64,000 nucleotides of DNA, taken from positions 1,907-65,906 of the forward strand of contig JAZOUN010000115.1 in NCBI GenBank assembly GCA_045658165.1. The letters run 5' to 3'. Shown in pieces: positions 2,380 through 2,915 of the stretch. Under the pieces are notes generated by a model, which had not been told where the DNA came from, did no database searches, and was given only the letters and a program-made list of their open reading frames with translations. This DNA is from Acutalibacteraceae bacterium (GTDB lineage: Bacteria > Bacillota > Clostridia > Oscillospirales > Acutalibacteraceae). The translations under genes were made by a program, and so were the position numbers. Position 1 is the first letter of the stretch, and each line of letters begins with the position of its first letter.

Positions 2380-2915
2380 TTTAACACCATGTTCTTCACC
2401 GGCGAAGAACCAAGCCATCAAATTGAAGCAAGTTCAATTTGATATTAACTTTAAGTTTATTATGTTAACTGTAAGTTTTTGATTGAAAAATCATATATGC
2501 TGAAGCTGAGGGAGGGAAGTTTGAGCACTTAGGGTAGAAAATCCCCTTGCAACAGGAGATTTTCACCATCCATATGCCGTCGCCTCGGTCGGTCGTCGTC
2601 GCAAGTTGTAGTCCTGAAATCGAGTTTTTTCATACCTCGAATGTTAAGCTTTTCAATATAGTAATATTGAAAGAAGTTTCACCCAGCCCTGACTTATGGC
2701 TTAACATATCCTATTTCTGGGGTTCCGCCCGCACAGTTCCATTTTTTTACATGGTCGGAAACAGACAATCAATCCAATGCGACAATTTCGGTTGACTACA
2801 ACTTATGGAACCTACTTTCGCCGGGTCATTTATTTACAAACAGGGGTGACCAACCGCAGAATATTTTTCGTGTATAACTGCATTTTCACGTCCTTTGCAT
2901 TTCTGCAAAGATTTC
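2380..2915 (+). ncRNA. candidate large structured noncoding RNA (class unassigned; strand and ends tentative)
   Basis: No ORF with an RBS in this span. The core at 2500-2860 is visibly more GC-rich than its AT-rich flanks. Local helices I could verify:
- 2391-2397/2404-2410
- 2417-2427/2433-2443 (11 bp, perfect)
- 2546-2553/2598-2605 (7 of 8)
- 2651-2659/2664-2672 (9 bp, perfect)
- 2893-2899/2904-2910, followed by T-rich sequence

Nested long-range complements: 2679-2684/2844-2849 encloses 2722-2727/2807-2812. Confidence 0.3.

Follow-up and report, generated by a model that had tools for sequence, protein, structure and literature searches.

A candidate large structured non-coding RNA in a gene-free interval near tRNA-Pro of an Acutalibacteraceae genome

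What occupies the gene-free interval between two small genes of a genomic island in an Acutalibacteraceae bacterium? The window analysed here is a stretch of 64,000 nucleotides (assembly GCA_045658165.1, contig JAZOUN010000115.1, positions 1,907 to 65,906), and the interval lies between its genes p86 (2007-2267) and p135 (3525-3932). A preliminary description, made from the letters of the window alone, had proposed that a large structured non-coding RNA is located at 2380-2915. We find that a large structured non-coding element is indeed present, conserved above the neutral level and carrying compensatory base-pair changes in a homologous locus, the contig L177. Our favoured reading, to which we give a probability of about 0.5, is that positions 2474-2915, perhaps extending to a terminator at 3121 (T1), encode an undescribed structured RNA of ~440-650 nt, which would be made from the + strand as a stand-alone, repressor-guarded and cassette-borne unit and would itself be the active molecule.

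A conserved non-coding block with compensatory base-pair changes

Relatives were found by an exhaustive protein search, and the contigs carrying matches were then compared. The search returned proteins with 93% identity to p135 (P0001), 86% to p86 (P0002) and 78% to p81 (P0003), together with remoter relatives. A word-index search with a concatenated p81, DUF6809, p86 and p135 query returned nothing, although three of these proteins did have relatives, as the exhaustive search showed; word-index negatives, at least with concatenated queries, are unreliable and are given weak weight here. L177 carries p81-like, DUF6809 and p86-like genes, a 1.45-kb gene-free gap and then a p135 homologue (35% protein identity to p135 of the window), in the gene order of the window. 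The known copies of the element are two full ones, in the window and L177, and a partial one in L087, which matches window 2825-4144 at 92-95% (95% in the 2825-3160 part). Two further contigs, L088 and L089, match window 1989-2448 at 84.5%. The known copies come from the samples Logan SRR33343745, ENA ERZ25021398 and JGI 3300029305 and 3300031555.

The conserved non-coding block, comprising palindromes, the structured core and a 3' extension, spans 2373-3023 on the + strand and is 85.5% identical over 660 nt to L177 1946-2596. Four-fold degenerate sites of the cassette genes, on the other hand, are only 38% (p81), 54% (DUF6809), 60% (p86) and 39% (p135) identical between the window and L177. 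Therefore, the non-coding block is the best-conserved part of the cassette. In the alignment of window 2480-2925 with L177 (A7), from which the segment identities derive, columns 1-53 are 92.5% identical, columns 54-123 74%, columns 124-334 80% and columns 335-453 84%. Substitutions concentrate in loops, and there are invariant tracts of 17-25 nt, of which those predicted to be single-stranded include GTTTCACCCAGCCCTGACT and TGGTCGGAAACAGACAATCAATCCA.

The window is non-coding from 2300 to 3524: 2304-3524 contains no credible open reading frame (ORF), and the preliminary description had seen none with a ribosome-binding site there. The best codon-usage score of any core frame is -0.44, compared with at least -0.11 (mean 0.35) for real genes, and neither a Pfam search with all six frames nor a PHROGs search with the ORFs returned a match. 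An 82-aa ORF at 2547-2795 is not kept in L177: another frame is open there, and the two copies of the block are separated by several frame-shifting indels. On codon usage, six-frame Pfam, PHROGs and the dissimilar ORFs of L177, a decayed protein gene was rejected; a word-based protein search for a coding trace was also negative, which carries low weight, since the tool also missed a 93%-identical relative. As described before, the core is richer in G+C than its flanks (0.40-0.45 across 2500-2900, against 0.25-0.32), a stretch that may also be delimited as 2490-2870 and that reaches about the level of coding DNA in this genome region.

We then asked whether the base pairing itself is maintained, using a fold predicted from the window alone, blind to L177. 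Seven of its pairs have changed on both sides; all seven (7/7) are still paired in L177, and none was broken on both sides. Under a null in which L177 letters were permuted among columns with the same window letter, 1.34 +/- 1.12 compensatory pairs are expected (P=0.0002). When the 3' partner was slid by 1-3 columns as a control, only 0, 0, 0, 0, 1 and 0 compensatory pairs appeared. RNAalifold, which predicts 101 pairs, recovers the same seven, and independent folds of the 215-nt domain from the window and from L177 arrive at the same H1-H4 architecture. The evidence for a constrained base-paired structure, drawn from two full copies and a partial one of this sequence, is solid. Conservation and covariation in a homologous locus, the comparison that the preliminary description had pointed to, bear its proposal out in part: the structured element is real, and its reading as an RNA, its strand and any function are provisional.

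Architecture and candidate ends of the element

The structured core, as delimited by RNAalifold and covariation, extends over 2480-2910 on the + strand and consists of a multi-helix domain with hairpins on its 5' side and one on its 3' side; all helices below are given in + strand orientation. The hairpin H0 (GAAAATCCCC/GGAGATTTTC, 10 bp, 2537-2546/2555-2564) contains a C.A mismatch in the window that is a C-G pair in L177. H1 is a long-range helix of 11 bp (2603-2613/2794-2804), changed from AAGTTGTAGTC/GACTACAACTT in the window to AAGCTGTAATC/GATTACAGCTT in L177 with two compensatory pairs; with its extension (2599-2601/2806-2808) it closes a domain of 2599-2808. The domain holds the hairpin H2 (TCGAG/CTCGA, 2620-2624/2636-2640) and the helix H3 (2641-2648/2700-2707), each with an A-U pair that is G-C in L177. 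H3 encloses H4b (2674-2678/2691-2695) and H4 (2651-2659/2664-2672), the latter with a U-A to C-G change and one A.C mismatch in L177. Beyond the domain, H5 (2824-2831/2844-2851) shows a weak change from A-U to U-G, and the 3' hairpin H6 (2893-2899/2904-2910), followed by AUUUCCUUAUU, a change from U-A to C-G; in L087, H6 differs only in its loop. Pairing of H0 with a repeat unit farther downstream (unit 2, 13/15 complementary) was considered and rejected, as it is not kept in L177.

In an RNA of this sequence, 5' hairpins would be followed by a multi-helix domain of 210 nt, which a long-range helix of 11-14 bp closes, and by a terminator-like 3' hairpin. The invariant single-stranded tracts would be its presumed working surfaces, available to a partner or for tertiary contacts.

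The seven helices listed in the preliminary description fared unevenly. Five exist as written (2391-2397/2404-2410, 2417-2427/2433-2443, 2651-2659/2664-2672, 2679-2684/2844-2849 and 2893-2899/2904-2910), 2546-2553/2598-2605 pairs at 7/8 positions, and the GGTTCC of the remaining one lies at 2721-2726, one base off. Complementary 8-mers are about five times as frequent as in shuffles (15 against 2.8). The hairpins 2651-2672 and 2893-2910 each gained a covarying pair in L177. The nested long-range helices TCACCC/GGGTGA and GGTTCC/GGAACC are, on the other hand, broken in L177, as is 2546-2553/2598-2605, and the long-range helix that the comparison does support, 2603-2613/2794-2804, had been missed.

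Two palindromes precede the core. Palindrome 1, GTTCTTC-N6-GAAGAAC (2391-2410), pairs perfectly and is a candidate operator or 5' hairpin; palindrome 2, ATCAAATTGAA-N5-TTCAATTTGAT (2417-2443), has perfect 11-bp pairing and is a candidate operator overlapping a -35 box. The arms of both are invariant in L088, L089 and the two L177 copies, only the loops vary, and L177 has two tandem copies of the palindrome module. A promoter scan of the + strand found the promoter-like site TTGATA-16-TATGTT at 2439-2466 (9/12 matches), with its -35 inside palindrome 2; the L177 counterpart, TTGATA-16-TAAGTT, keeps the TAnnnT pattern. The palindromes (2391-2443), upstream of or overlapping the likely promoter, are more suggestive of operators than of fold elements. 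Transcription would begin at this weak sigma-A-type promoter, with an RNA start near 2474, and a DNA-binding repressor probably holds expression off through the invariant palindrome with 11-bp arms in which the -35 lies.

At the other end, H6 is terminator-like, weakly so, in a terminator scan. The strong + strand terminator T1 (3085-3121, 16 pairs) follows 175 nt after H6, shows a C-G to U-A change in L087 and has a terminator as its positional counterpart in L177. If H6 were read through, the RNA would end at T1 and measure ~650 nt.

Some further observations concern the palindromes and the borders of the block. A 17-codon ORF, MFFTGEEPSHQIEASSI, runs across both palindromes (window 2388-2441; L177 1809-1862). 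The diverged L177/L088 copy also has this ORF open and differs by two synonymous and two non-synonymous changes. As the ORF lacks a ribosome-binding site, it probably arises as a side effect of palindrome conservation. The pattern of palindrome 2 also matched 77 JGI metagenome contigs (L099-L175), which were set aside as an unrelated dispersed repeat. That repeat has a variable loop, GGTGGTTTAATTAATCAAATTGAAC...GTTCAATTTGATTCAATG, and looks like a hairpin-bearing family of some other organism. The motif AAAAAATTTTT(T/A) brackets the conserved block on both sides (window 2371-2382 and 2983-2994); together with the tandem palindrome module of L177, which starts with the same motif, it may mark a recombination or insertion boundary.

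The mobile cassette and its downstream units

The element is carried by a cassette of 2.7 kb, made up of p81-DUF6809-p86, the element itself, short promoter/terminator units and p135. The non-coding region is bounded on the left by the intrinsic terminator of the upstream p81-DUF6809-p86 operon (2277-2296, + strand), which was found by a terminator scan and is kept in L088, L089 and L177. The island has its genes, promoter cassettes and terminators all on the + strand. The gene for tRNA-Pro(GGG), at 4220-4295 on the - strand, is 1.3 kb from the element, and the context given in the preliminary description, mobile DNA near tRNA-Pro in a relative of Ruminococcus/Oscillospiraceae, was correct. 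Around L177 there are dockerin genes, which suggest a cellulolytic, Ruminococcus-like host.

The origin of the cassette is suggested by L091, a 42.7-kb contig on which the gene trio is followed by genes for a MarR-like protein and RepL, by others and by a tyrosine integrase, and from which the core is absent. Because L091 has RepL and a tyrosine integrase, we derive the cassette from an integrative RepL-type element; it looks like the remnant of such a mobile element beside tRNA-Pro. Integration at tRNA-Pro with an att repeat was rejected, as no direct repeat of the tRNA-Pro end was found. The core occupies the position where L091 has its MarR-like and RepL genes, and a decay product of either gene was likewise rejected, as tblastn shows no trace of them. 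Positions 5457-12264 of L091 form a complete-looking integrative element, with the trio, the MarR-like gene, RepL, a 707-aa protein, three 53-54-aa proteins and the tyrosine integrase, and a perfect 12-bp palindrome, TATGACAGGGCA-N11-TGCCCTGTCATA, stands ahead of its repL.

Downstream of the core, a promoter cassette, CATAATT..N19-22..TGGA, occurs four times in region 3014-3524 of the + strand, at 3014, 3199, 3324 and 3463. The cassette, more generally TCATAATT..N19-22..(T/A)TGGA, stands ahead of every + strand gene of the element family, with further sites at window 1389, L177 809, 2587-3075 and 4853, L091 5384 and 7959, and L176 5939; it does not fit the standard -35/-10 layout. The core is without it and has the palindromes in its place. 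Some 70-100 nt after each of the copies at 3014, 3199 and 3324 there is a strong terminator (3085-3121, 3266-3299 and 3403-3440, all +, the three strong terminators noted in the preliminary description), and the copy at 3463 drives p135. The three extra tandem units before p135 may be short RNAs or decoy leaders. Promoters on the - strand inside these repeated units were rejected, because this cassette also stands ahead of + strand genes that have ribosome-binding sites. Unit 2 (3284-3446) is 80% identical to L091 7919-8083, just downstream of RepL in a different element, and its internal hairpin has been retained with altered arms (GTATCCG/CGGATAC against GTATCTGGG/CCCGGATGC). Unit 2 is a second conserved small non-coding element.

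Beyond these loci, the element was not encountered again. Exact-sequence look-ups of the window proteins, RpoD included, gave no record, and the nearest species representatives (80 loci of Oscillospiraceae and Acutalibacteraceae metagenome-assembled genomes) have RpoD proteins 77-80% identical, with synteny lost directly after rpoD. No copy of the region was found by nhmmer over the RpoD-matched loci (1.26 Mb), and no further copy by a covariance model of the H1 domain over 1.41 Mb of collected loci. Distant-mode blastn against 72,556 plasmids (PLSDB) and 50,697 phage records gave no match, and the DUF6809 loci of phages and plasmids (L081-L086) have no homologous non-coding region. Scans for a 22-mer of the core in metagenomes and viral contigs returned nothing, scans for two conserved 18-23-mers in viral contigs nothing relevant, and scans with p135 and p86 alignments against viral contigs nothing.

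As to the proteins of the cassette, p81 (1466-1711), p86 and p135 begin in a similar way (M.K.I..I...T..G.F.R), and the predicted N-terminal beta-hairpins of p86 and p135 are alike. The three may be paralogues with one small shared domain. Confident structure models of p135 and p86 (predicted local distance difference test, pLDDT, 86) gave no PDB fold match at E<=0.001 and no functional lead; the p86 model gave a faint Pur-alpha-like hint (probability 0.4). DUF6809 is not mentioned in the searched literature. Between tRNA-Pro and rpoD (window 4467-7621) lie a BlaI-like repressor and a 931-aa BlaR1-like sensor. Since this pair is absent from the rpoD neighbourhood of 80 related genomes, except for a 22-25%-identical BlaI/BlaR-like pair in L011, the stretch 1-7650 appears to be a variable region of the genome.

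Alternative explanations and comparison with known systems

Several observations weigh against the reading of the element as a + strand RNA. Folding energy is ordinary: against a background of 158 control segments, each 380 nt long and taken from this window (z-scores with mean -1.2, standard deviation 1.7 and 10th percentile -3.25, the extreme segments being bidirectional terminators), 2380-2930 has z-scores of -3.16 (+) and -2.16 (-), the + value being at about the 10th percentile, and the G+C-rich core 2490-2869 has -1.15 (+) and -1.05 (-), the genomic median. With the core at the median and the longer segment within the background, thermodynamics gives no support and was dropped as evidence. 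Moreover, the window-only fold has long 5'-3' closing helices in which 17 pairs are lost in L177; some, but not all, of the predicted helices are real, and the supported model falls short of a global architecture. Two full copies and a partial one put R-scape-grade statistics out of reach. The predicted promoter and the H6 terminator are both weak, and C exceeds G and T exceeds A on the + strand of 2600-2900. Among one-sided changes in supported helices, three leave a G.U pair only on the - strand and one only on the +. Mosaic mobile elements exchange modules, and a recent exchange could account for part of the excess conservation; it cannot, however, explain the covariation result. It is because of the comparison with L177, and not of folding energy alone, that the feature lies beyond chance; the preliminary description picked a real feature, partly for the wrong reasons, its stability argument not being significant.

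The same structured RNA could come from the - strand, antisense to the island genes, with a start near 2930-3020 and leftward transcription through the core. The G.U-only changes that favour this strand lie in H0 (window), H4 (L177) and the pair 2649/2699 (L177), the five supported helices are intact there in both sequences (12, 5, 9, 9 and 8 bp), G exceeds C and A exceeds T in 2600-2900, as is typical of structured RNAs, and the consensus fold is slightly better (-98.3 against -93.1 kcal/mol). However, the 3:1 ratio of G.U changes is not significant, the single-sequence test yields fewer compensatory pairs on this strand (5, P=0.007), and neither the scan nor a reading of the sequence revealed a convincing - strand promoter to the right of the core or a - strand terminator to its left, in an island whose genes, cassettes and terminators all point the other way. 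We therefore consider a - strand RNA unlikely. The + strand is favoured since the island is all +, H6 covaries and is followed by a U-rich tract, and the promoter-like site overlaps an invariant palindrome. Among the RNA readings we put the odds of the + strand at roughly 3 to 1, with pairs and skew mixed or leaning to the - strand and the context leaning to the +.

The main rival, which we regard as distinctly unlikely, is a single-stranded DNA structure, namely a site akin to a single-strand origin (sso), at which synthesis of the complementary strand would be primed during single-stranded DNA replication or transfer. Such origins are non-coding, orientation-specific and built of multiple stem-loops (PMC4595007), L091-type relatives are integrative elements with RepL and a tyrosine integrase, covariation suits hairpins of single-stranded DNA as well as RNA, and the weakness of the promoter and terminator signals agrees with this view. 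On the other hand, the window island and the L177 cassette contain no Rep, relaxase or integrase gene, and RepL is present only in L091-type relatives, which are without the core. Neither PLSDB plasmids nor the phage records show similarity, and a 3' hairpin with a U-tract and a promoter overlapped by a palindrome resemble a transcription unit.

A cis-acting 5' leader, which would allow processive antitermination or attenuation past the three downstream terminators to p135, is very unlikely. In the window and in L177 alike, three or four strong + strand terminators do separate the core from the p135-family gene, and in all core-bearing loci (window, L087 and L177) a p135-family gene lies downstream. 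However, four promoter cassettes stand between the core and p135, one of them directly ahead of the p135 ribosome-binding site, which weakens the antitermination idea of the preliminary description; the CATAATT..TGGA cassette alone precedes other genes of the element family, the core is 85% conserved while p135 is 35% identical, and EAR and other leader models of Rfam do not match. Since p135 relatives without the core exist (L176 and L097), the gene trio occurs without it in L091, and p135 has its own cassette, the core is independent of p135. The element would most likely act as a free, element-encoded RNA, in trans, rather than as a leader of p135. Least of all do we expect an element without function, in which a decayed gene or recently exchanged mosaic mobile DNA carries coincidental paired changes: G+C at coding level, an ordinary fold z-score, two sequences only and the modular recombination of mobile elements would suit it, but the seven compensatory pairs with none broken on both sides (P=0.0002), codon usage that is not coding-like in any frame, the lack of a protein-family match and the clustering of substitutions in loops beside invariant 17-25-nt tracts speak against it.

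A further-reaching proposal, which we hold only tentatively and rate at somewhat less than even, is that the RNA founds a class of its own, made up of large structured RNAs in small tRNA-Pro-associated mobile cassettes of rumen and gut relatives of Oscillospiraceae/Ruminococcus. Guarded by a repressor, it would act as a free RNA, as ROOL and GOLLD are thought to do, for example as a self-assembling or protein-binding scaffold, and would take the place of the MarR-RepL module, for control and replication, that related elements have at this position. Few bacterial non-coding RNAs above ~400 nt have complex folds (rRNA, RNase P, group I and II introns, OLE, GOLLD, ROOL, HEARO and raiA), and each of these proved to be biochemically unusual. 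If true, the proposal would add another case to the question of what use large RNAs are to mobile elements, in a compact and testable unit of palindromic operator, promoter, 440-nt fold and terminator. The analysis also illustrates that a single distant homologue can validate an RNA family too rare for standard comparative pipelines.

To compare the element with known families, we ran cmscan at the gathering threshold on the whole window and at E<=10 on 2200-3600, 2460-2930 and L177 1680-3140. At the gathering threshold, Rfam matched only an FMN riboswitch, a SAM riboswitch and tRNA. Both riboswitches are ordinary, well-known elements of the + strand (FMN, 32109-32228, 106 bits; SAM-I, 32961-33055, 76 bits). 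At E<=10, no family matched the window or L177 copies, on both strands in the case of ROOL. The ROOL/GOLLD class guess of the preliminary description therefore did not hold: the covariance models of ROOL (RF03087), GOLLD (RF01998), HEARO, OLE and raiA all failed to match either copy.

ColE1-type replication is known from enterobacterial plasmids, and its RNA II offers an analogy only: it is a structured RNA of ~500 nt that serves a Rep-independent mobile replicon, and the core sits at the MarR/RepL position of L091, whereas no antisense RNA I partner, origin or other sign of replication was found here. Processive antitermination RNAs, such as put of phage HK022 and EAR of Bacillus, are 70-120 nt long. 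The element resembles them as a structured RNA upstream of several intrinsic terminators, and differs in having no Rfam match and a downstream gene with its own promoter cassette. Single-strand origins, which also occur in integrative conjugative elements (PMC4595007), are represented by sso1 of ICEBs1 and the sso of pBAA1/pTA1060; the likeness lies in a non-coding, strongly paired block on a mobile element whose relatives encode RepL, and the difference in the absence of PLSDB plasmid similarity, in carriers without Rep or relaxase and in the promoter- and terminator-like ends.

Closest in setting are ROOL and GOLLD, large multi-helix RNAs of rumen and gut Firmicutes that occur near tRNA genes in prophage-like or mobile DNA (PMC5737381). 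The element shares the host type, the mobile context and the nearby tRNA, and context alone does not confer membership. At ~440 nt it is shorter than ROOL (581 nt) and GOLLD (~800 nt), has one supported multi-helix domain and is simpler as far as two sequences show, and, unlike both, is very rare, with 2-3 copies found. The element is thus best filed outside the named families, as a new and very rare family of a known kind, the large structured RNAs of mobile elements.

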